Positions 1 through 10,510 of a stretch of 10,510 nucleotides of DNA are shown piece after piece. The position numbers and the translations under genes are program-made. Within the stretch, counting starts at the first letter, position 1; every line of letters begins with the position of its first letter. The notes beneath the pieces were generated by a model. It was given only the letters and a program-made list of their open reading frames with translations. It did no database searches and had not been told where the DNA came from. Origin of the DNA: a virus (taxonomy: Duplodnaviria > Heunggongvirae > Uroviricota > Caudoviricetes); IMG/VR virus record IMGVR_UViG_2690315922_000021, positions 1-10,510 of that record; one strand, given 5' to 3'.

Positions 1-600
1 ATGCAAATTGGCTATATTCGTGTGTCAACAAATGACCAGAACACGGATTTACAACGCAATGCACTGAACTGCGCAGGATGTGAACTGATTTTTGAAGATA
101 AAATCAGCGGAACGAAATCAGCCAGACCGGGATTGAAAAAACTGCTCAGAACGCTATCAGAAGGAGATACGCTGGTTGTCTGGAAGCTGGACAGACTGGG
201 CAGAAGTATGAAACACCTGATCACGCTTATTGAGGAATTGCGGGAAAAAGGTGTTAATTTCCGTAGTCTGACGGACAGCATTGACACATCAACACCCATG
301 GGGCGTTTCTTTTTTCACGTCATGGGGGCTTTAGCCGAAATGGAACGTGAATTAATTGTAGAGCGTACACTGGCCGGGCTGGCAGCAGCACGCGCACAAG
401 GACGCATTGGCGGACGTCGCCCGAAGTTGACAAAAGAACAACACGAGCAAATAGCGAGGCTGATTAAAAACGGTCATGACAGGAAACAACTGGCGATCAT
501 TTACGACATCGGCATATCGACGATTTATCGTTATCACCCTGTAGGCGATATACAGGCTGAAGAAACAACCAGGCAGACTCAGGAAAATGAAAACCGCTAA
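1..600 (+). CDS. Serine-recombinase DNA invertase (Gin/Hin/Pin/Cin family)
   Basis: 199-aa ORF starting at the ATG at position 1. N-terminal catalytic block GYIRVSTNDQ (Ser9), conserved LVVWKLDRLGRS and SLTDSIDTS...GRFFFHVMGALAEMERELI blocks, C-terminal HTH region (GRRPKLT...LAIIYDIGISTIYRY). Length and motif order match Mu Gin / Salmonella Hin as recalled from memory. Confidence 0.93.
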   Translation: MQIGYIRVSTNDQNTDLQRNALNCAGCELIFEDKISGTKSARPGLKKLLRTLSEGDTLVVWKLDRLGRSMKHLITLIEELREKGVNFRSLTDSIDTSTPMGRFFFHVMGALAEMERELIVERTLAGLAAARAQGRIGGRRPKLTKEQHEQIARLIKNGHDRKQLAIIYDIGISTIYRYHPVGDIQAEETTRQTQENENR

Positions 601-619
601 TCTGACCATTAGCGGTTTT
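590..619. terminator. Bidirectional intrinsic terminator between convergent invertase and gpU genes
   Basis: Perfect 12-bp inverted repeat AAAACCGCTAAT (590-601) / ATTAGCGGTTTT (608-619) with a 6-nt loop. A-run on one side and T-run on the other give a U-tail on either strand. It overlaps the invertase stop (598-600) and lies just past the gpU stop (627-629). Confidence 0.6.
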
Positions 620-626
620 GCGTTAA

Positions 627-1121
627 TCAAAACAGCCCTTTAACGGAGCTGGCCGCGCTGTTAAGGGATGATGTGACCTTGTCTTTGAAGCCGGACAGCA
701 TATCACTGAACGATGAGGATTGCAGGCGCTCCCGCAAATCCTCATCACAGCGTTCAAGAGTCAGTGAAAATTCTATCTTTTTCGCCTTACCGTAGCGATC
801 AAACTCGGAGCGGGTCGTATTCGTTCCGGTCAGGACATACATGCCGTAAATCTGCCCGACACCATCAATCAGAGGCCAGGGGCGTCCTGTATATGCCTGC
901 GTGGTCAGCAACGAAAGCGACACTTCGCCACCTGTAATTTCAGGATAAAGCACGCCGGAAAGCACGATGCGATCATCACCTGCACCGATATACTGCCAGC
1001 TTGCTGAACGGTTAACACGTTCATTTTTCACATGCCGCCAGCTTTTGTTTTGCTGTAACTGCTGATGCGGCAGTGTGCGCAGCTCAAAAACAAACATGCC
1101 GTAGATCATCATCATGACCAT
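627..1121 (-). CDS. U: Phage tail protein gpU (P2 GpU family)
   Basis: 164-aa ORF directly downstream of the tape-measure stop, with GAGGAG Shine-Dalgarno upstream. Sequence (MMMIYGMFVFELRT...KSWRHV...SASWQYIG...LYPEITGG...WPLIDG) resembles P2 gpU as recalled. The true start may be the second or third ATG (1115 or 1112). Confidence 0.85.
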   Translation of the reverse strand: MVMMMIYGMFVFELRTLPHQQLQQNKSWRHVKNERVNRSASWQYIGAGDDRIVLSGVLYPEITGGEVSLSLLTTQAYTGRPWPLIDGVGQIYGMYVLTGTNTTRSEFDRYGKAKKIEFSLTLERCDEDLRERLQSSSFSDMLSGFKDKVTSSLNSAASSVKGLF

Positions 1122-1127
1122 GACTCC

Positions 1128-3944
1128 TCAATCTTTATCGTAAAAACTGCCACGTCCGGCACGGGCGCGCCGTTCCATCTCTGCCCTGACCATTTCACCG
1201 ACCAGTTTCGCCAGTTCGCGGGGATTCTGCGTAACAACGTTATGCAGATGAACATGAATTTCACCGCCAAATCCGGAGGCAACAGGCTCCCGGTTACGGG
1301 AAGTTACAGGAACTGATGCCACTGGAGATCGTATGGCCTCCGCCACCGGGCGGGAGCTGGCCGCAACAACAGGGACCAGCGCCGGAGGCAGCGGAGCCGG
1401 GACCACGGGTGTGATATTAATTGCGGGGGCAGGCTTACTGACCTGCGCAATCTTCCGCTCCTGCCACTCCCCACGAACAGCAAGTGCGCGGGGCAGGTTC
1501 TTAAAGACAATATCGCCGGGGCCAATGCGTTTTTTCGTCTCATCAACCAGCTTACCTGTGTTATCAGCAATTTTGCTGAGTCTGCGTAGCGTCCCGGTAT
1601 TGCTGTCTGTGAGCGGTTTGTTGTCTTTGGGTTTATCACCTCCGGTGCCATTGCCATTTTCCACAGGCTTCGGCGGATTGATTTTCGCAAGGTCCCCCTG
1701 AAGCAAGGCAACCTTGTCCTGAAGAATGGCCGCACGCTGTGCGTCTTCGATTTTCTTGCGCGCCCTTTCCGCTTCATCCGGAAGGACGCCAAGTTTTTCA
1801 AGTATCCACGCCAGCGTATCCAGTAGCATTTTTGCAGGTGTCAGAACAAGCTGTAACGCACCGCCAAGAACGTTACCGAATATCTCGCCAGCACTGGTAC
1901 ATTTATCCAGCGTTTCCTTGCTGGACTCCATCGGTGACAGCAGCGATTTAAACCAGTTAAACACCTGGCTGATCCCGCTTCCGATTGCGTCAAAAACAGG
2001 ACCAAACCGTTCAAAGGTTTCGCGCAACGGGGTCAGCCTTTCCATAATCCCGCTGAACACCCCGGCAAAAAATGCCCTGATGGGATCCCAGTATTTCCAG
2101 ATAAGAACGGCAGCTCCGGCAAGCGCAGCCACGATAAGACCAACCGGACTGAACAGCGCCCCGATAGCGCCTCCCAGTAAAGAAACGGAACCCGTCACCA
2201 TTCCCCACAGCGCAGGCAACACCCTGACGACATTCATTGACCGGGTAAGAATGTCAAAACCAAGACGCAGGGTGGCCAGCTTCCCGTAAAGCACCCCAAT
2301 AACCAGCGACAACGAGCCAATCGTTGCAGTCATTGCCAGCAACGCACCGCCTGCTATCAGTAGCTGGCGCGTCAGTACCGGATGGGCCTGCGCCAGCGAG
2401 GTGATTTTTTCAAGCACCCGCGTGAACCACTGCGTGACAGAACGCAGCGGACCGTCAACCAGATCACTGATGCGAATACGAAGACCTTCCCATGCGCTGT
2501 CGAGATTTTTCAGGTCCCCATCAAGATTATCGGCCATTACTTTTGCGACGCGATCGGCCTCTCCCCTTGCCCCCTGCAATTCTCTGGTCAGTTTTTGCAG
2601 CTCTCCTGAACCAGCCGCCGCAACAAGCGTCTGCAAACCAACGAACGCCTCTTCTCCGGCGATGTCCTTGAAGAAGGATACCTGGTCCACCTGTCCGTAT
2701 TTTTGTGTCGCCTTATAGAGATCAAGCAGCACATCCTCCATCGGGCGCATTTTGCCTCTGGCGTCAGCAACTGACACCCCAAGCTCTTTCAGAGCATCAG
2801 CCGCAGCTTTTGGCGGTGATGCAAGGCGGGACAGACTTGCGCGCATGGCCGTACCAGCATCGCTTCCGCGAAGACCATTATTGGCAAGCATCCCGGCCAT
2901 GGCCGCCGCTTCTTCAAGACTGATACCAAGTTTTGCGGCAACCGGACCGGTATACTTCATGGTTTCGCCCAGCGCGCGTAAATCAGTATTGGTCCGGGTG
3001 AATGCTGCTGTCAGCGTATCGCCAACCCGGTCCATTTGATCGGCTGTCAGATTGAACTGTGTGAGGATATTGGAGCCTATATCAGCCGTCTCGCCGAGTT
3101 CGACGCCACCTGCCAGCGCCATATTAAGAACACCGGGCAATGCGGCCTGAATGGCCTGCGGAGTAAAACCAGCCATTGCCAGAAAGCTCTGCCCGCTGGC
3201 GGCATCACTCGCAGTAAACTGTGTTTCAGAGCCAAGTTTTAACGCCTGCTCACGCAGCGCCTTAAACTGCGGGCTGTTTTTGTCGATTCGCGTCAGTGCC
3301 TGAACGCGGGACATCTCTTTGCCGAACCCGATCGCAGGCTGCAAAAAACGCCCGGCAGCATAGCCGCCCGCCGCTGCCGCACCAATTGCCAGCGCACCAC
3401 CTGTTTTCAGTTTCCCCGCGGTTTCCTGCGCGCGCGAATACCGCTCACGCGCCCGCGTTACACGCGCAAGCGCCTGCCGTTCGCGTTCAAGCTGGTTGTT
3501 GTACTGTTCGGTGCGTCTGATGGCCTGCTGGATGGTGTTATCGCTGCCTGTCAGGGAAATGCCGTGTCGTTTCAGTTCTCCGCCAAGTTCCCGCATTTTC
3601 TGAATTTCCCGTGTGCGCGATTCATTCAGGCGTTCAAGCCGGGTGCTTAACTGCTGCATCAGCTTTTGTTGTTTTTCGCTGAGCACTGTACCCGTGCGTT
3701 GTAACTGATTAAGGGCGTTAAGCTGGCGTCGTGCTTTCACGATGCCCGCATCCGCTTTACTGACAGCGTCACGGGCGCGCTCAAATGAACGCGCCTGACG
3801 CTCGAGATTTTTGATCGCCCCCTGCGTTCGCTGGATGGAGTCACCAAACTGCCCCATCAGGCGGCGGGCGTTTTCGGCAGGCCGGGTCAGCCTGTCAACG
3901 GCGCTGAAAGCGACCCGGATATCAAGAGTCTTCATTGTCTGCAT
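1128..3944 (-). CDS. T: Phage tail tape measure protein (gpT)
   Basis: Roughly 940-aa ORF immediately downstream of the chaperone E/E' pair and upstream of gpU. Coiled-coil-prone N-terminal region, a central Gly/Ala-rich hydrophobic segment and a C-terminal region, typical of tape measure proteins. The track ORF begins at a GTG at 3971; ATG at 3944 or 3935 is more likely, so the start is uncertain by about 30 nt. Confidence 0.9.
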   Translation of the reverse strand: MQTMKTLDIRVAFSAVDRLTRPAENARRLMGQFGDSIQRTQGAIKNLERQARSFERARDAVSKADAGIVKARRQLNALNQLQRTGTVLSEKQQKLMQQLSTRLERLNESRTREIQKMRELGGELKRHGISLTGSDNTIQQAIRRTEQYNNQLERERQALARVTRARERYSRAQETAGKLKTGGALAIGAAAAGGYAAGRFLQPAIGFGKEMSRVQALTRIDKNSPQFKALREQALKLGSETQFTASDAASGQSFLAMAGFTPQAIQAALPGVLNMALAGGVELGETADIGSNILTQFNLTADQMDRVGDTLTAAFTRTNTDLRALGETMKYTGPVAAKLGISLEEAAAMAGMLANNGLRGSDAGTAMRASLSRLASPPKAAADALKELGVSVADARGKMRPMEDVLLDLYKATQKYGQVDQVSFFKDIAGEEAFVGLQTLVAAAGSGELQKLTRELQGARGEADRVAKVMADNLDGDLKNLDSAWEGLRIRISDLVDGPLRSVTQWFTRVLEKITSLAQAHPVLTRQLLIAGGALLAMTATIGSLSLVIGVLYGKLATLRLGFDILTRSMNVVRVLPALWGMVTGSVSLLGGAIGALFSPVGLIVAALAGAAVLIWKYWDPIRAFFAGVFSGIMERLTPLRETFERFGPVFDAIGSGISQVFNWFKSLLSPMESSKETLDKCTSAGEIFGNVLGGALQLVLTPAKMLLDTLAWILEKLGVLPDEAERARKKIEDAQRAAILQDKVALLQGDLAKINPPKPVENGNGTGGDKPKDNKPLTDSNTGTLRRLSKIADNTGKLVDETKKRIGPGDIVFKNLPRALAVRGEWQERKIAQVSKPAPAINITPVVPAPLPPALVPVVAASSRPVAEAIRSPVASVPVTSRNREPVASGFGGEIHVHLHNVVTQNPRELAKLVGEMVRAEMERRARAGRGSFYDKD

Positions 3945-4190
3945 TCCCGCTGCGAAGTGCCGCCCGCTCACGCCAGCTAACCACTTCGCCGGGCGTCATC
4001 ATGAAGATTTCGGCGGGCGACCAGTTAAAAATGGCGGCGATATCTGCCACCAGATCTTCGATGTGCTCAAAGCACACCAGGGTGATTACGCTGCCGTCTC
4101 CTGCACGCTCTTCGCGCCAGAGTCTGGCTCGCTCATAAAATTTACAGCCACAGCGCACAACTGAATAAAATCGCGTGACGACATTTTTTT
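3922..4190 (-). CDS. E': Tail assembly chaperone E' (-1 frameshift extension giving the E+E' fusion)
   Basis: The -1 frame relative to gpE is closed by a TAA immediately upstream of the A7 run (4184-4190 on the minus strand) and then stays open to a stop at 3922-3924, overlapping the tape measure start. This is the conserved chaperone frameshift arrangement (lambda G/GT, P2 E/E'). Confidence 0.7.
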
Positions 4191-4460
4191 AATCATCACT
4201 TCATCCAGTCGTGGCGAGGTCACGCGAGGCAACAGCGTGAACATGGTATCCGCTTTCAGATTCAGCACATCAGACAGCGACAGACCACGCAGGGATCCAG
4301 CCTGTTCAATAGCCCCGGTGATCTCCACATACGTGATTTTTTCGCCACCACGCTCAATTGGTCGGGTCAGTTTTACGCCACGTTCGACAGCCATATCCTC
4401 ACCTGCCGTCACATCATCCGCCACGGTGTTATTCCGGGTTTCAGTATCGATGTCTTTCAT
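4086..4460 (-). CDS. E: Tail assembly chaperone gpE
   Basis: 124-aa ORF between the tail tube and tape measure genes. Strong Shine-Dalgarno AAGGAGA 6 nt upstream of the ATG at 4460. Contains an A7 slippery run 33 codons before its stop. Confidence 0.85.
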   Translation of the reverse strand: MKDIDTETRNNTVADDVTAGEDMAVERGVKLTRPIERGGEKITYVEITGAIEQAGSLRGLSLSDVLNLKADTMFTLLPRVTSPRLDEVMIKKMSSRDFIQLCAVAVNFMSEPDSGAKSVQETAA

Positions 4461-4515
4461 CAGTTGTCTCCTTTTCAGTCAGAGGCGACGCACTGCGCCG
4501 CCTGCATATTACTTA

Positions 4516-5028
4516 TCAGCCAAGCCCAAGCGCGGAACGGATACGGTCAGGCACAATGTCCTTGCCGTCCTTCCGGTAGATGTGGTTCAACAGGTCGATT
4601 TCCCACAGCGGGCGATCGTTAACGCTCAGCTTGTAGTAGGTGTTTTTGACAGCGTAAGTGTGTGATGTGGCTTCGCCCTGTTTGGCTTCCCCCATATCAA
4701 TTTCCGTCACACGCCCGCGCATCTCGATTTCATACAGATCGCTTTCTGCATCGGTGTAGTATTCACCCGCAAAACGCAGCAGCGTGCCGTCAATCGTGCC
4801 GCCATATTTAAGGAACAGCGCACGAACAGCTCCCCCCATGACAAAACTCGCATCAAGCGCGGAGTCGTCCAGACCGAGATCAATACTTACCGCCCCCATC
4901 ATGCCACCACCACGATAGCTGTCGGTTTTGCGCGTCAGTTTGGGCGGCGTGACGGATGTCACTTTGCCCACTTCGTTTTCACCATCCACAAACAACGTAA
5001 AAAAGCGAAGATGTTTTGGTACAGCCAT
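4516..5028 (-). CDS. FII: Phage tail tube protein (gpFII)
   Basis: 170-aa ORF whose ATG overlaps the sheath stop codon (ATGA-type overlap at 5026-5030), indicating translational coupling. Size and position match P2 FII. Confidence 0.9.
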   Translation of the reverse strand: MAVPKHLRFFTLFVDGENEVGKVTSVTPPKLTRKTDSYRGGGMMGAVSIDLGLDDSALDASFVMGGAVRALFLKYGGTIDGTLLRFAGEYYTDAESDLYEIEMRGRVTEIDMGEAKQGEATSHTYAVKNTYYKLSVNDRPLWEIDLLNHIYRKDGKDIVPDRIRSALGLG

Positions 5029-6212
5029 CAGGCACCTCCCAGCACCGCAAATGCGGGACCAAAGAATTCATCAGTAAACGTCTGGTAAAGCTCCATGTCT
5101 TCCAGCGGGGGAACAGGCGTATATTTGTAGCGAATACGCACACGTCCCTGACGTAAATTCGTGGTGCCGTTATCCACCACGTCATACCAGCACTCCGCAC
5201 CAATCAGTTTCCCGGCAGTAACCAGCGAATCCAGTTTTGCCCTGATGGCACTGATAACATCCTTCACATTCGCAGGCGTCAGTGGACTGTCGATGGTTTC
5301 AAACTGCGCTTCCGCAATTGAATCAGCCAGCACCTGTGCGGTTCGGGTATACACCTCAAAGATGTAGGCGTTCGTTTCCGGTGTGCGGTTGCCCCAGAAG
5401 CGGAACCCGTTGCGACGAATAATGGTCGTGATTTCTTTGTTGTTGAGGCTGTTGGCATCGCTGTCTTCGGCCTGCAACGACCAGAACACATGCCTGGACA
5501 TTCCCAGCACATTTTTAACCGGAACGTTGGACAATGATTTGTGCCAGCCCTGCTCATGGTCAATGTACGCACGAAGGCCGCACGCATAGGCAGGCGCGGG
5601 GAACGTTTCGTTTTTGCCACTTTTCGGGTTGTAGGCGATGAAGTCCGGCCATAAGAGCATCACCTCACGTTCGTTGAATTTCTGGCGATAGGTAATCGCC
5701 TCAGCCATCGTGTTACAGCCGTGACATGAGGCATACACAAACGCGCGCAGTTTACCTGCAATCACGCACAGGGATTTTGTTACAGCCTCCGTGTCCAGCT
5801 CCGGCGCGGCCAAAATACGCGGACGGTATCCGATGCTTTCATCCTGCTCTGCAACAAGCAGCGCATACATCCCCGTATAGCTGCCGTCATCCTCAGAACC
5901 ACCGATAACCAGTTGATCCTGCGTCTTTCCGTCTTCTTCTTTGTGTTCAGCCACGCGAACGACGATCACCTTTGTGCTCACCTGGTCTGAGATGGCCTTA
6001 AGCGCACGATAAAGCGTCCCCGTTGTTCCGCATTTTCCCAGCACGTCATTGACGCGGGTCAGCAGTGTGGGCTTGTTCAGCGGGAACAGCTTCGCGTCCG
6101 CATCATCCGCCGTTGCCACGATACCGATAACGCTGGAATCAACATCGTTAATCGCTGTTACCAGGTCGGTATTTTCCGTAACACGGGCACCATGAAAACG
6201 AGTTTCACTCAT
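5028..6212 (-). CDS. FI: Phage contractile tail sheath protein (gpFI)
   Basis: 394-aa ORF with blocks resembling P2 FI as recalled (LRAFVYASCHGCNT, LLWPDF, GLRAYIDHEQGWHKSLSNV, IRRNGFRFWGNRT, YTRTAQVLADSIAEA, YKYTPVPPLE). Confidence 0.95.
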   Translation of the reverse strand: MSETRFHGARVTENTDLVTAINDVDSSVIGIVATADDADAKLFPLNKPTLLTRVNDVLGKCGTTGTLYRALKAISDQVSTKVIVVRVAEHKEEDGKTQDQLVIGGSEDDGSYTGMYALLVAEQDESIGYRPRILAAPELDTEAVTKSLCVIAGKLRAFVYASCHGCNTMAEAITYRQKFNEREVMLLWPDFIAYNPKSGKNETFPAPAYACGLRAYIDHEQGWHKSLSNVPVKNVLGMSRHVFWSLQAEDSDANSLNNKEITTIIRRNGFRFWGNRTPETNAYIFEVYTRTAQVLADSIAEAQFETIDSPLTPANVKDVISAIRAKLDSLVTAGKLIGAECWYDVVDNGTTNLRQGRVRIRYKYTPVPPLEDMELYQTFTDEFFGPAFAVLGGA

Positions 6213-6369
6213 AGCTTCAGCCCCTTGTATCCGTTAAATGATTCGGCAACAATCATCACCCACCACGCGCGTAATCTCACCCCTGCGCCGTTCTCCCGAC
6301 CCGGCGACAACAAAAAGCAGTAACCTCCTCCGCACGCACATGCGACCATGCCGCACAGGGAGGGAACAG

Positions 6370-7479
6370 ATGACCGACACCACCATGCAATTGCTCAGTC
6401 AGGGCACAGACCCCGTGAAAATGCCGGATTTTGATATTCTCGCGGAGGGTAAAACGCTGTCAGGCGTGGCAGAGCGCCTGATGAGCCTGTCACTGACCGA
6501 CAACCGGGGATTTGAGGCGGACCAGCTCACCATCACGCTGGATGATGCGGATGGTCAGTTGCAGCTACCGCCACGGGGCGCGCGCCTGACGGTTCTCATT
6601 GGCTGGAAAGGAGAACCGCTGACAGAAAAAGGCACTTACATTGTTGATGAAATCGCTCACGAAGGACCGCCGGACAGGCTGACTGTTTCAGCCAGAAGCG
6701 CAGATTTTCGGGATGAATTTAACGTTAAACGTGAGGTGTCCTGGCATGATGTGACCATTGAGCGTGTGGTATCCGCCATCGCTCATCGGTATGGTCTGAA
6801 ACCGCAAATCAGCGAAATGCTGATGGATATCGAAATCGACCACGCCGACCAGACCGAAGAAAGCGACATGTCCTTCCTTACGCGCATGGCGGAAATGCTG
6901 GGCGCAATCACCACGGTAAAAAGCGGTAATCTGTTATTCATTATGCCAGGCGGTGGCGTGAACGCACAGGGCCAGCCGTTGCCATCGTTCGCCATCACGC
7001 GCAGCAGTGGCGATCGCCATCAGTTCCGCATTGCTGACCGCGAAGCGTATACGGGGGTACGCGCTTACTGGCTTGATCTTAATTACGGGAAAAAGAAAAA
7101 AGTCAGCGTGAAACGCCGCAAACCGCCAAAACCCAAAAAGGAGAAAAGCAGCAGCCGTGAAGGTGATTATATGGAAGGCGCGGAAGGCAATGTGTTTGTG
7201 TTACGCAAGACTTATCAGAACGAGCAGGCAGCAAGACGCGCAGCGGCGGCAAAGTGGCAGCAGCTACAACGCGGAGCCGCATCATTCTCCATCACGCTGG
7301 CACGTGGTCGTGCAGAACTCTACCCCGAAATGCATGGCACGGTAACAGGATTTAAAAGCGAGATTGATAATCAGGACTGGATTATTGCAAAAGCCGAGCA
7401 CACCATCGATAACAGCGGCTTTACCACGCAGCTTGAGCTTGAGGCAAAAATCCCGGAATGGATAGCAGAAACAGAGTGA
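6370..7479 (+). CDS. D: Phage late control protein D (gpD, baseplate hub, gp27/VgrG-like)
   Basis: Long ORF. The start is placed at the ATG at 6370, preceded by GGAGGGAA; the track start at 6238 would add an S/P/R/T-rich 44-aa extension and crowd the divergent FI start. Assigned as gpD by size and by position immediately upstream of ogr. Contains a Lys/Arg-rich low-complexity insert. Confidence 0.85.
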   Translation: MTDTTMQLLSQGTDPVKMPDFDILAEGKTLSGVAERLMSLSLTDNRGFEADQLTITLDDADGQLQLPPRGARLTVLIGWKGEPLTEKGTYIVDEIAHEGPPDRLTVSARSADFRDEFNVKREVSWHDVTIERVVSAIAHRYGLKPQISEMLMDIEIDHADQTEESDMSFLTRMAEMLGAITTVKSGNLLFIMPGGGVNAQGQPLPSFAITRSSGDRHQFRIADREAYTGVRAYWLDLNYGKKKKVSVKRRKPPKPKKEKSSSREGDYMEGAEGNVFVLRKTYQNEQAARRAAAAKWQQLQRGAASFSITLARGRAELYPEMHGTVTGFKSEIDNQDWIIAKAEHTIDNSGFTTQLELEAKIPEWIAETE

Positions 7480-7521
7480 GCAACTTAGAATAGCAGCAGC
7501 ACCACGTTAAGGGAGGTCGCT

Positions 7522-7782
7522 ATGTTCCGTTGTCCGCTTTGTGGCGCATCTGCCCGTATCCGCACCAGTCGTCCGGAAAATGATTCAAACACCGTGCGGC
7601 AAAAGTATTACCAGTGTAACAACCTGGAATGCGGCGTATGCTTCTCAACACTGGAAGCTTTCCATAAATTCACATCAAAACACGCCTCCGGCGTTCACTC
7701 TTCAGAAGGTATCCCGTGGCATGAGCTGCCAGCTTCACACAGGGGAAACAATCAGATGAGTTTGCCTTTACCTCAGAATTAA
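7522..7782 (+). CDS. ogr: Ogr/Delta-family zinc-finger late transcription activator
   Basis: 86-aa ORF beginning MFRCPLCGA...TSR with a C-x2-C-x22-C-x4-C arrangement (CPLC ... CNNLEC), matching P2 Ogr (MFHCPLC...). Shine-Dalgarno AAGGGAGG upstream. Position immediately after D as in P2. Confidence 0.88.
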   Translation: MFRCPLCGASARIRTSRPENDSNTVRQKYYQCNNLECGVCFSTLEAFHKFTSKHASGVHSSEGIPWHELPASHRGNNQMSLPLPQN

Positions 7783-7791
7783 CAGGCAGAA

Positions 7792-7820
7792 TTGCCGGAG
7801 TAACAAAAAAGCGATAGATT
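7792..7820 (+). promoter_or_regulatory. Candidate sigma70 promoter for the hok-like transcript
   Basis: TTGCCG (7792-7797), 17-bp spacer, TAGATT (7815-7820), upstream of the mok/hok-like frames. Sequence inspection only. Confidence 0.25.
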
Positions 7821-7870
7821 ACGCGCGGGTGCCTTTCGGCTGATGGTCGGAGGGAATACCCGAAGGCCAG

Positions 7871-8107
7871 ATGTGGAAAGGCCCCGGAAAACATTTCTGT
7901 TTAACCGAGGCCCTAACACTTCTTACCTTCGCAAGTAGAAGGTTAGCGCCTCTCCTCTCAGGAGACAAGCGTTATGACGCAAATTCCGTTAAAAACCCTG
8001 TTACTTTGCATAACTGCGGTAGCGATAATCTGGATCCTCCACACATCACCGTGCGAGTTACGATTCAGGTTTGCTGGCACGGAAATTGCGGCATTCTTAC
8101 TATGTAA
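7871..8107 (+). CDS. mok-like overlapping leader frame (modulator of killing) of the hok-type locus
   Basis: Frame-shifted ORF that starts about 100 nt upstream of the hok-like ORF and ends 7 nt before its stop, the same overlap geometry as mok/hok. AAGG 5 nt upstream of the ATG at 7871. Confidence 0.4.
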   Translation: MWKGPGKHFCLTEALTLLTFASRRLAPLLSGDKRYDANSVKNPVTLHNCGSDNLDPPHITVRVTIQVCWHGNCGILTM

Positions 8108-8114
8108 TAAGTAA
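7974..8114 (+). CDS. Hok/Gef-family type I toxin (small membrane peptide)
   Basis: 46-codon ORF absent from the ORF track (below length cutoff): MTQIPLKTLLLCITAVAIIWILHTSPCELRFRFAGTEIAAFLLCNK. Has an N-terminal transmembrane helix with conserved Cys-x-Thr and the C-terminal CE[LI]R[FY]R.G..E[IV]AAF signature of Hok, HokB and RelF as recalled. Shine-Dalgarno AGGAGA 8 nt upstream of the ATG. Confidence 0.7.
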   Translation: MTQIPLKTLLLCITAVAIIWILHTSPCELRFRFAGTEIAAFLLCNK

Positions 8115-8200
8115 GATAACCGCGACGGGGGAGTAATCCCCCGTCAATCGGTTGCTAAGGTTGGTCGAAACGGCACCCTATCTCACAGACATGAACAACA

Positions 8201-8234
8201 AACCCGCAGCGTAAAAACTGCGGGTTTTCTTTTT
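8201..8234 (+). terminator. Rho-independent terminator (3' end of hok-like transcript)
   Basis: CCCGCAG (8203-8209) / CTGCGGG (8218-8224) stem with loop CGTAAAAA, followed by TTTTCTTTTT (8225-8234). Confidence 0.75.
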
Positions 8235-8258
8235 GGTGCCCTCACAAATGAGGGCACC
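8235..8258. repeat. Perfect 9-bp inverted repeat GGTGCCCTC-N6-GAGGGCACC
   Basis: Arms at 8235-8243 and 8250-8258. Not followed by a U-tract on either strand, so it is either a second hairpin of a tandem terminator or a protein-binding dyad upstream of the com-like gene. Confidence 0.5.
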
Positions 8259-8280
8259 ATACATAAGCAATAGGCATAAC

Positions 8281-8320
8281 AGATCGATGCAATAAATCCG
8301 ATCGATAAAAACGATCGATT
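8281..8320. promoter_or_regulatory. Cluster of three GATCGAT repeats upstream of the com-like gene
   Basis: AGATCGAT (8281-8288), CGATCGAT (8299-8306), CGATCGAT (8312-8319). GATCGAT was not found elsewhere in the window on visual scan. Lies 45-85 bp upstream of the com-like start. Confidence 0.5.
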
Positions 8321-8363
8321 TGTTATCATATCGGCAGCAGTAACCACACAAGAGGTGCCGCAA

Positions 8364-8561
8364 ATGACGCAAAATGTACGATGCAAAAATTGCAACAAAC
8401 TACTTGCCCGCGCCTCATTTCACTACATTGAAATAAAATGTCCGCGCTGCAAAACACTTAACCAGATAACGAGAGCCATCGAGCACCCCACACACATTAG
8501 GAGTTATGACCGTGGGGATCGCAATCCAGCACCAACCAGCACATACACCGGAACACACTAA
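8364..8561 (+). CDS. com: Mu Com-like zinc-finger translational regulator
   Basis: 66-aa ORF from the ATG at 8364 (the track starts at a GTG at 8355). RCKNCNKLL...HIEIKCPRCK...EHPT matches the Mu Com Cys4 zinc finger (RCKNCNKLL...HIEIRCPRCK...EHPT) as recalled. Shine-Dalgarno AGAGGTG upstream. The 3' end overlaps the start of the downstream methyltransferase. Confidence 0.85.
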   Translation: MTQNVRCKNCNKLLARASFHYIEIKCPRCKTLNQITRAIEHPTHIRSYDRGDRNPAPTSTYTGTH

Positions 8562-9297
8562 GGTTTATCAGACTGACAATGCCACGCTCTGTCGTGGGAA
8601 TGCGCTGGAAATATTGCCGCTGATTGAGCCAGAAAGCATTGATGCCTTAATCACTGACCCGCCTTACAGTTCGGGTGCGACACACAAGGCCGGACGCACC
8701 AACCAGGGCAGCCATGCAAAATATCTGAACGGCGAGAACATTCACCGTTTTGATGGGTTCGCGGGTGAAAACATGGACGCCCGTTCGTGGGCTTACTGGA
8801 CACAATTATGGATGGCACAGGCACACCGCGCAGTCAGGCCGGGCGGTTATGCCCTGGTATTTACTGACTGGCGACAATTACCAGCTTTAACCGATGCGTT
8901 TCAGGCCAGTGGCTTTACATGGCGCGGCATCATTGCGTGGAACAAGGGGAGGGGGTCACGAACACCACATACCGGGTATTTCCGGCATCAGTGCGAATAC
9001 ATCGTCTGGGGCAGCAAAGGCCATTTAGATAAATCGCCTTCGGGACCGTTCGACGGCTGCATGACATTCCCGGTTATCCCGTCAAAGAAAATGCACCCGA
9101 CCGGAAAACCAGAAGAACTAATGGCGGAACTGGTCAGGACTGTGAATAGTGGCGGAACAGTCCTTGATCCTTTTATGGGGTCAGGGACAACGGGTGTGGC
9201 TGCACTGAAAGCAGGACGCAAATTTATTGGTATAGAAACCAGTGATCATTATTTTGATGTAGCAACACAACGGCTAAAAACGGCGATCGAACCATAA
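8506..9297 (+). CDS. DNA methyltransferase, beta-class amino-MTase (probably N6-adenine), orphan
   Basis: 263-aa ORF with motif IV DPPY near the N-terminus (LITDPPY) and motif I FMGSGTTG near the C-terminus, the IV-then-I order of beta-class N6A/N4C methyltransferases. Shine-Dalgarno AGGAG upstream of the ATG at 8506. No restriction endonuclease partner in the window. Confidence 0.9.
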   Translation: MTVGIAIQHQPAHTPEHTKVYQTDNATLCRGNALEILPLIEPESIDALITDPPYSSGATHKAGRTNQGSHAKYLNGENIHRFDGFAGENMDARSWAYWTQLWMAQAHRAVRPGGYALVFTDWRQLPALTDAFQASGFTWRGIIAWNKGRGSRTPHTGYFRHQCEYIVWGSKGHLDKSPSGPFDGCMTFPVIPSKKMHPTGKPEELMAELVRTVNSGGTVLDPFMGSGTTGVAALKAGRKFIGIETSDHYFDVATQRLKTAIEP

Positions 9298-9302
9298 GAC
9301 AA

Positions 9303-9330
9303 AGCCCGCAATGTTGCGGGCTTACTCTAC
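9303..9330 (+). terminator. Probable intrinsic terminator downstream of the methyltransferase
   Basis: AGCCCGCAA / TTGCGGGCT inverted repeat (9303-9322) followed by a pyrimidine-rich TTACTCTAC tract. The U-tract is weak. Confidence 0.4.
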
Positions 9331-9462
9331 CTCTCGAAAATGTGGTCACTGCGTGGACATACGCTGATACAAATCCTTTTATATCAATAAATTAAATCTT
9401 TGTTTTTTTCATCAACAAGGATTTTCACGTTTGTGGTACCTGTATGAGACGAGAGTTAACCA

Positions 9463-9479
9463 AACAAGTGTGCCATAAT
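9463..9479 (+). promoter_or_regulatory. Candidate extended -10 promoter for flk
   Basis: TGTGCCATAAT (TG-n-CATAAT) about 50 bp upstream of the flk ATG in an AT-rich region. Sequence inspection only. Confidence 0.25.
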
Positions 9480-9526
9480 CTCGCGCCCAGGCATACTTGC
9501 GATGATTTCAGGTATAAGGATACATA

Positions 9527-10510
9527 ATGATACAACCTATTTCCGGCCCTCCTCCCGGGCAACTGCCAGACCGGGAAAACAGCGCAGGCAATCAGCCTTT
9601 ATCCAGTCTGCAACGAACCGCCCTGGAAAGCTTGATGACCAAAGTAACCTCGCTGACGCAACAACAGAGAGCGGAGTTATGGGCCGGCATCAAACACGAC
9701 ATCGGCCTGCCAGGCGATTCACCTTTACTCTCGCGCCACTTCCCCGCTGCGGAACATAACCTCGCGCAACGTCTGCTTGCCGCGCAAAAGAGCTATTCTG
9801 CTCGTCGGCTTTTAGCCCAGTTAGGAGAATATTTACGGTTGGGAAATAACCGTCAGGCGGTTACGGATTACATCCGAAATAACTTTGGTCAGACACCGCT
9901 TAACCAACTCTCGCCAGAACAATTAAAGACCATTCTTAACCTGTTACAGGAAGGGAAAATGGTTATTCCTCAACCACAGCAACGTCAGGCTACCGATCGT
10001 CCTTTATTACCGGCGGAGCATAATACGCTTAAACAACTGGTGACTAAACTCGCCGCGGCGACAGGGGAACCCAGCAAGCAGATCTGGCAGTCGATGCTGG
10101 AGCTTTCTGGTGTGAAAGATGGCGAACTAATCCCGGCAAAACTGTTTAACCATCTGGTCACCTGGTTGCAGGCGCGTCAGAGCTTAAGCCAACAAAATAC
10201 CCCGACGCTGGAATCGCTTCAGATGGCGCTAAAGAAACCGCTGGATACCAACGAGCTGGCAGCACTATCCGCGTATATCGAGCAAAAATATGGCCTTTCC
10301 GCGCAATCCGTCCTTTCTTCTGTACAGGCTGAGGATATCCTGAACCAGCTCTATCAACGGCGGGTTAAAGGGATTGATCCACGAGACATCCAGCCACTGC
10401 TCAATCCCTTTCCACCATTAATGAACACATTGCAAAATATGGCGACACGTCCCAGCGTGTGGATTTTATTAGTCGCCATCCTCATCATGCTGGTCTGGCT
10501 GGTACGTTAA
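9527..10510 (+). CDS. flk: Flagellar regulator Flk (C-tail-anchored inner-membrane protein), host chromosomal gene
   Basis: 327-aa ORF beginning MIQPISGPPPGQ, Gln-rich, with a single C-terminal hydrophobic anchor (WILLVAILIMLVWLVR). Matches enterobacterial Flk as recalled. Shine-Dalgarno AAGGA upstream. Confidence 0.8.
   Translation: MIQPISGPPPGQLPDRENSAGNQPLSSLQRTALESLMTKVTSLTQQQRAELWAGIKHDIGLPGDSPLLSRHFPAAEHNLAQRLLAAQKSYSARRLLAQLGEYLRLGNNRQAVTDYIRNNFGQTPLNQLSPEQLKTILNLLQEGKMVIPQPQQRQATDRPLLPAEHNTLKQLVTKLAAATGEPSKQIWQSMLELSGVKDGELIPAKLFNHLVTWLQARQSLSQQNTPTLESLQMALKKPLDTNELAALSAYIEQKYGLSAQSVLSSVQAEDILNQLYQRRVKGIDPRDIQPLLNPFPPLMNTLQNMATRPSVWILLVAILIMLVWLVR

Follow-up and report, generated by a model that had tools for sequence, protein, structure and literature searches.

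A fixed inversion of the FI-to-U tail operon in a P88-like prophage and a single predicted Ogr site between putative divergent FI and D promoters

In phage P2 (NC_001895) the genes FI, FII, E, E', T, U, D and ogr are all co-directional; E and E' overlap, D overlaps the end of U, and an Ogr-type dyad lies ~70-80 nt upstream of FI. The P2 late-promoter consensus for activators of the Ogr/Delta family is TGT-N12-ACA (PMC3931495, citing Christie and Calendar 1985 and Julien and Calendar 1995). P2 also possesses two divergent late promoters, pP and pO, whose annotated transcription start sites (TSSs) at 3016 and 3127 flank a single annotated activator site. Late promoters dependent on Ogr/Delta generally have the dyad centred ~55 nt upstream of the TSS and a poor -35 region. 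The other described systems with which the present locus can be compared are the Gin/Cin/Pin/Hin inversion systems, such as the G segment of Mu, the C segment of P1 and the P segment of e14. The locus studied here lies in a stretch of 10,510 nt of viral DNA (IMG/VR record IMGVR_UViG_2690315922_000021, positions 1 to 10,510; referred to below as the window), in which the tail genes FI to U run on the minus strand, the late control gene D and the activator gene ogr run on the plus strand, and a Gin-type invertase gene adjoins U. Very probably the FI-U block is an ancestral in-place inversion that has become fixed, with a single Ogr dyad serving divergent FI and D promoters (P_FI and P_D) and with the invertase unrelated to the inversion.

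The window represents the right arm of a P88-like prophage (Xuanwuvirus, Peduoviridae) with the chromosomal gene flk adjoining. Membership in Xuanwuvirus was judged on this right arm, the part of the genome contained in the window: positions 7-8186 aligned as one piece to P88, P884B11, 500465-2 and ΦSM with 92-94% nucleotide identity, and Chuche and PhiR44_2 were also collinear at 92-94%. P88 (NC_026014) matched positions 7-8234 as one piece at 92%, and P884B11, 500465-2 and ΦSM matched at 93-94%. The P2-type tail and late control set was complete, with Pfam and PHROGs matches for every gene (FI, FII, E/E', T, U, D and Ogr). In the annotations of P88 and ΦSM the strands and the order of the genes were identical to those of the window, i.e., the invertase (+), followed by U, T, E', E, FII and FI (-) and then by D and ogr (+), and the 157-bp spacer between FI and D, including the dyad, was shared as well. 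It is this collinearity, together with the same annotated order, that identifies the window as the right arm of a Xuanwuvirus prophage. Both P88 (PMC5285337) and ΦSM (PMC6456863) are inducible or spontaneously released, plaque-forming phages, and SEN4/5 is a functional myovirus (PMC5261728); PhiR44_2 and SEN4/5 likewise count among the isolated phages that form plaques and have this order. The window differs from P88 and ΦSM in its invertase, the proteins being only ~87-88% identical, and to the right of ogr, where it has hok, a Com-like gene and a DNA methyltransferase gene. It also differs in location, since P88-type prophages of other E. coli strains adjoin ihfA/pheT while this one adjoins flk.

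Compared with the F operon of P2, the window contains the same eight genes (identity 45% for FI, 49% for D and 36% for Ogr), the same overlap of E and E', and an Ogr-type dyad at a similar distance upstream of FI. Unlike in P2, the segment from the FI promoter (P_F) to U is inverted, and D is a separate, divergent transcription unit. A first-pass annotation, made from the sequence of the window, had described the FI-U block as inverted in place relative to P2, and because FI to D are co-directional in P2 and are then followed by ogr, that description is correct. The gene identities and strands that it gave, the divergence of D and ogr from FI and the spacer of 157 bp were likewise borne out by the open reading frames (ORFs) and by the Pfam and PHROGs matches.

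FI and D are separated by the spacer at 6213-6369 (157 bp), with divergent genes on both sides. An alignment of this spacer across four genera brought out an Ogr-type activator dyad at 6292-6309 (centre 6300.5), which reads TCT-N12-ACA in the window and TGT-N12-ACA in SEN5, Kp4871-3 and other families. The general form T[GC]T-N12-ACA was present exactly once per spacer in 165 of 166 loci, the remaining locus having TGT-N12-AGA; the 166 are the phage and IMG/VR loci, retrieved with the D of the window or of SEN5, for which positions could be assigned to both genes, FI and D. The offset of the dyad from the start codon of FI was constant (68-79 nt), and the N12 interior varied freely. An extended motif, GTTCT-N12-ACAACAAAAGC, was also found in the divergent P/O spacer of P88. 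A third match to the extended motif, within T at 1850-1871 (-), reads GTTCT-N12-ACAGC (ACAAC in P88) and was rejected as probably due to chance, as no -10 hexamers were found at the 34-nt offsets described below. The exact form TGT-N12-ACA had only two matches in the window, both in coding regions and at chance level, and a generic sigma-70 scan of the spacer gave nothing useful.

On the minus strand the FI late promoter has a predicted -10 element, GATGAT (6252-6257), which lies 34 nt beyond the dyad, and a predicted TSS at ~6245. The corresponding predicted element of the D late promoter is GACCAT at 6344-6349 on the plus strand, 34 nt after the ACA half-site, with a predicted TSS at ~6356, and a Shine-Dalgarno sequence, GGGAGGG, is located just after this TSS at 6358-6364. 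When spacers were grouped into families at <80% identity, 13 of the 14 families proved to have a.A...T hexamer at exactly 34 nt beyond the half-site, on each of the two sides, and none of the other offsets between 0 and 69 nt had the hexamer in more than 21% of the families. The rule obtained in this way (hexamer 34 nt out, TSS +7 nt) reproduced both annotated TSSs of P2, 3016 and 3127. The spacer thus resembles the pP/pO region of P2, in which one TGT-N12-(A/C)CA dyad lies midway and the -10 elements are 34 nt outside the half-sites; the distance between the two TSSs is ~111 bp in P2 and 111 bp as predicted in the window. The two regions differ in what they serve and in how they are known: pP and pO serve the packaging (Q, P) and head (O and following) operons from mapped TSSs, whereas the site in the window would serve FI-U and D(-ogr) from predicted ones. 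Among the features of an Ogr-dependent late promoter, the dyad and the -10 element at a fixed distance were found in the spacer, and the position of the dyad relative to the TSS is a predicted one.

The first-pass annotation had reasoned that D, once split from the F operon, would need a promoter of its own in 6213-6369, and the conserved bidirectional late-promoter architecture is strong comparative evidence in favor of this expectation. Most likely D has its own late promoter, which has one activator site in common with that of FI. Since the distance from FI to the dyad (68-79 nt) matches that of P_F in P2 (73 nt), P_FI most likely corresponds to the original P_F, which moved with the inverted segment. 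P_D would then have arisen anew, the symmetry of the activator site allowing it to form; the split arrangement could work because the Ogr site is a dyad and came to adjoin D after the inversion. According to this mechanism, transcription from P_FI would proceed leftward over the whole block, from FI to U, and stop at the 590-619 hairpin, while transcription from P_D would run rightward across D and probably continue into ogr. As D and ogr have kept a common direction, ogr could still be reached by late read-through in the manner of P2.

The inverted order was found in every sampled locus in which D was at least 59% identical to that of the window. These loci belong to Xuanwuvirus, Reginaelenavirus, Reipivirus, Senquatrovirus and several unnamed IMG/VR lineages. 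Five loci were sampled with D at or below 53% identity, i.e., Kapieceevirus, CP019275, P2, Arsenicumvirus (Shewanella) and Tigrvirus (Burkholderia), and all had the canonical order. The inverted loci grouped into one clade in the neighbour-joining tree of D and likewise in that of FI, and the simplest reading of these sequences is that a single ancestral in-place inversion event took place. The segment P_F-FI-FII-E/E'-T-U, situated between the tail-fibre module and D, would have been inverted in the common ancestor of a single enterobacterial clade within Peduoviridae, and the arrangement would have remained fixed in the clade since. Temperate phages commonly swap tail modules, and replacement of the FI-U genes by a cassette from another contractile-tail phage, acquired in reverse by illegitimate or homologous recombination, would lead to an end state that looks alike. 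However, the genes of the block and D have diverged from P2 to a similar extent (FI 45%, U 46% and D 49% identity; FI, FII, U and D all ~42-49%), which argues for a history shared with D and for an inversion in place and not for an imported cassette. The trees of FI and D also gave the same clade split, and the distance from the FI start to the activator site corresponds to that of P_F in P2. Module replacement is therefore considered unlikely.

The proximity of an invertase gene to an inverted operon could also suggest a live switch, in which a Gin-like invertase or homologous recombination would flip the 5.6-kb FI-U block and so couple or uncouple D and the F operon. In favor of such a switch, the invertase gene abuts the block and short inverted matches occur at both boundaries. 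The distribution of the two orientations is against it. Of 5,426 complete E. coli genomes, at least 1,107 aligned collinearly with window positions 1-7800 over 80% or more of that segment. When a synthetic chimeric query was used, with the 3' end of U joined to the spacer and D, no joined match to this canonical U-to-D junction was found in the 1,390 E. coli genomes that held both halves. In the phage and IMG/VR loci, FI (-) adjoined D (+) in 166 of 166. The tail-fibre segment between gix sites provided a positive control, for the same relatives carry it either way round, each orientation being represented by six or more robust examples (e.g., flipped in L065, 99% identical over 2.5 kb, and unflipped in L051, 97% identical). 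As a genuine switch was recorded both ways in the assemblies and the FI-U block only one way, the FI-U block is not an active switch. Besides, this order is the normal one in intact, functional relatives (P88, PMC5285337; ΦSM, PMC6456863; SEN4/5, PMC5261728), a finding that speaks against a switch on the terms in which the first-pass annotation had raised it and in favor of its fallback, a fixed ancestral arrangement.

One locus, L066 (IMGVR_UViG_2654587728_000014, positions 1-6612), was examined as a candidate for the alternative orientation, having U (+) and the invertase (-), and was rejected as a rearranged or chimeric region rather than a flipped FI-U block. In this locus two opposite invertase genes flank the tail-fibre cassette (Hc' G' / G Hc), T ends prematurely at about amino acid 468 right beside the second invertase, and identity to the window is 98.5% for the left part but 93.6% for the right. 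These features suggest recombination between two prophages or a misassembly.

The invertase gene itself closes the tail-fibre (H/G) inversion module, which is situated upstream of the window; it is accessory, and its product flips the tail-fibre segment at the good gix sites of that segment. In P88 the invertase gene comes after an invertible segment that has a 26-bp gix-like site, TTATC(G/T)AA(T/A)ACCTCGGTTTACAGGAA, at each end, the two sites being TTATCGAATACCTCGGTTTACAGGAA and TTATCTAAAACCTCGGTTTACAGGAA. The gene is absent from SEN5, PhiR44_2, Kp4871-3, Kp4848-1 and about half of the Xuanwuvirus loci, in all of which the block is still inverted; in these members G (+) is directly followed by U (-) to FI (-) and then by D (+). 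Conversely, a canonical P2-like locus with an invertase (L086) has the order invertase (+), FI (+) to U (+), D (+). The position of the invertase is thus the same whichever way FI-U points, so that it belongs to the tail-fibre module. The earlier view that the invertase stands in the place of D has to be given up accordingly, because it marks the end of the tail-fibre module and occupies the same spot in canonical P2-like phages, and no evidence was found that connects it with the FI-U block, many members having the inverted block and lacking an invertase. In comparison with the Gin-type systems, the invertase of the window is a close homologue of Gin, and the tail-fibre segment of P88 adjoins the invertase, is bounded by gix sites and occurs in both orientations among relatives. 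The FI-U block, unlike these systems, has no gix sites, has one orientation and is inverted also in phages without an invertase.

The boundaries of the block were searched for traces of recombination. The 9-bp inverted match reported in the first-pass annotation is real, with one arm at 6230-6238 as given there; the other arm, placed at 640-648, is in fact at 639-647. Shuffles or random pairs of windows of such sizes gave a match of 9 bp or longer in 2-4% of cases, so that the match found here is marginal; outside Xuanwuvirus it is not conserved. No extended or significant inverted repeats were found at the boundaries in an inverted-repeat search across the window. The same annotation had proposed a search for 26-bp gix/hix-like sites at the two junctions, and none above chance was found at either. 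The best match to the gix site of P88 anywhere in the window was 15/24, the AAACC-NN-GGTTT core being absent, and a score of at least 15/24 was reached somewhere in 93% of shuffled windows and is thus a typical maximum of a shuffle. Inversion by way of the real gixR was also considered and rejected; gixR lies upstream of the invertase gene, which would then have been flipped too, and this was not seen. Taken with the single orientation of the block, its inversion in lineages lacking an invertase and the lack of conservation of the 9-mer in other genera, these results make a live switch very unlikely. That the window sequence alone is a scrambled, decaying prophage remnant or an assembly error is hardly credible, for although some relatives are rearranged (L066) or hit by insertion sequences, all ORFs of the block are intact, and isolated plaque-forming phages as well as over 1,100 complete genomes share its gene order (PMC5285337, PMC6456863, PMC5261728).

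Several observations weigh against the reading of a fixed ancestral inversion with a shared Ogr site. Two of the seven best pseudo-gix matches (15/24) sit at both boundaries of the block, at 623-648 (+) and 6212-6237 (-), in inverted orientation, and both overlap the 9-mer match. They could possibly be relics, or weakly active substrates, of a Gin-like invertase, in which case the ancestral inversion was catalysed by an invertase or very rare flipping restores the order FI to U followed by D; this is regarded as very improbable. If it were true, a rare flip in a small fraction of cells would be invisible in assemblies, and very rare inversion within populations would be compatible with the assembly data. 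The single origin was deduced from unbootstrapped neighbour-joining trees and five canonical outgroup loci. The two promoters, the binding of Ogr and the terminator are predicted from conservation and by analogy with P2. In addition, the left half-site in Xuanwuvirus is TCT and not TGT, and the predicted leader of D is very short (~14 nt), and shorter still in Kp4871-3.

The inversion of FI-U is an ordinary fixed trait of a lineage and its novelty is low. No description of the inversion or of a D promoter was found in the searchable literature on Xuanwuvirus, P88, SEN4/5 and P2-like inversion, but the order is visible in public, annotated genomes classified by the International Committee on Taxonomy of Viruses, so that the feature is already known in the form of data. 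An invertase located beside an 'inverted' operon mimics a phase-variable switch, and the comparison presented here averts that misreading for a clade that is present in about a fifth of the complete E. coli genomes. Within Peduoviridae, the inverted block unites Xuanwuvirus, Reginaelenavirus, Reipivirus and Senquatrovirus as a clean shared derived character (synapomorphy). The spacer with a single dyad and two predicted promoters suggests a way in which an operon may be split by inversion without the loss of late control, and its geometry yields precise predictions of the TSSs of D and FI.

The individual genes of the window are arranged as follows. The invertase gene occupies 1-600 (+) and encodes a serine DNA invertase of the Gin/Cin/Pin type (Pfam Resolvase and HTH_7; phrog_125, DNA invertase), residues 1-185 of which match the Mu Gin structures PDB 3UJ3 and 4M6F with E ~1e-90. 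It converges with U, the two genes being 26 bp apart, and a hairpin at 590-619, found by a terminator-like scan and by reading of the sequence, lies there. This hairpin has a 12-bp stem, a 6-nt loop and flanking A/T runs, and is a probable bidirectional intrinsic terminator marking the end of the FI-U operon. The last gene of the inverted block, U, is at 627-1121 (-) and encodes a tail protein (Pfam Phage_P2_GpU, 1.5e-38; phrog_76). The maximal ORF of the tape measure gene T extends over 1128-3971 (-; Pfam PhageMin_Tail, 1.6e-56), and its start is likely at 3935, judging from the comparison with P88, in which T has 2,808 nt, and from the RefSeq annotation. The tail assembly chaperone gene E is at 4086-4460 (-), with a weak match to Pfam Phage_TAC_7 below the curated cutoff, and E' (GpE) is at 3922-4158 (-) in the -1 frame, overlapping the start of T (Pfam Phage_P2_GpE, 2.1e-12), a frameshift between the two inspected frames being putative. 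The tail tube gene FII is at 4516-5028 (-; Pfam Phage_tube, 2.1e-45), and the tail sheath gene FI, the first of the inverted block, is at 5028-6212 (-; Pfam sheath domains; phrog_23, tail sheath, 1e-125). To the right of the spacer, D encodes the late control protein or baseplate hub gpD at 6370-7479 (+), divergent from FI (Pfam Phage_GPD; phrog_52, 2.7e-166), and ogr, in the same direction as D, encodes a zinc-finger late activator of the Ogr/Delta type at 7522-7782 (+; Pfam Ogr_Delta, 5e-14). D was 99-100% identical in 80 IMG/VR loci. No matches were obtained in the Rfam and tRNA scans of the window.

The longest ORF containing D extends over 6238-7479 (+), with an ATG at 6238 and 413 amino acids, and its start falls within the predicted 5' untranslated region of FI. 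Homology to D begins at ~6370, and the upstream extension of the ORF from 6238 is probably untranslated. The start of D was treated differently in two relatives, L092 (12679-13479) and L093 (8162-8962), in which RefSeq/PGAP called gpD from an internal start as a coding sequence of 801 nt named 'contractile injection system protein, VgrG/Pvc8 family', leaving ~300 nt of the D frame unannotated next to a spurious antisense pseudogene fragment. The gap of 42 bp between D and ogr (7480-7521) is empty in the window and is a hotspot for cargo in relatives: DUF3800 or GmrSD insertions were located between D and ogr in L092 (13480-14972) and L093 (8963-11154), and genes for PIN-domain, ParA and YecA proteins were also listed among the matches in other E. 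coli prophages.

Downstream of ogr, an ORF of 46 amino acids at 7974-8114 (+) encodes a toxin of the Hok/Gef family (Pfam PF01848, 2.5e-8), and a Hok/Gef gene is annotated at the same place in P88 and in E. coli relatives; no Rfam match for a hok/Sok RNA reached the gathering score. Farther to the right, an ORF for a zinc-ribbon protein similar to Com of Mu (8355-8561, +) overlaps by 56 nt an N6/N4 DNA methyltransferase gene (8506-9297, +). This layout resembles the com/mom operon of Mu, with a methyltransferase instead of Mom. The segment is absent from most Xuanwuvirus phages, while Chuche aligns with the window as far as 8497 and has a gene annotated as 'gpCom'. Whole-window matches in E. 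coli had identities of at most 96.5%, and no copy of an exact 40-mer taken at the prophage/flk junction was present in a set of species-representative genomes. The chromosomal gene flk occupies 9527-10510 and is preceded by the interval 9298-9526, and other Xuanwuvirus prophages in E. coli abut ihfA/pheT.

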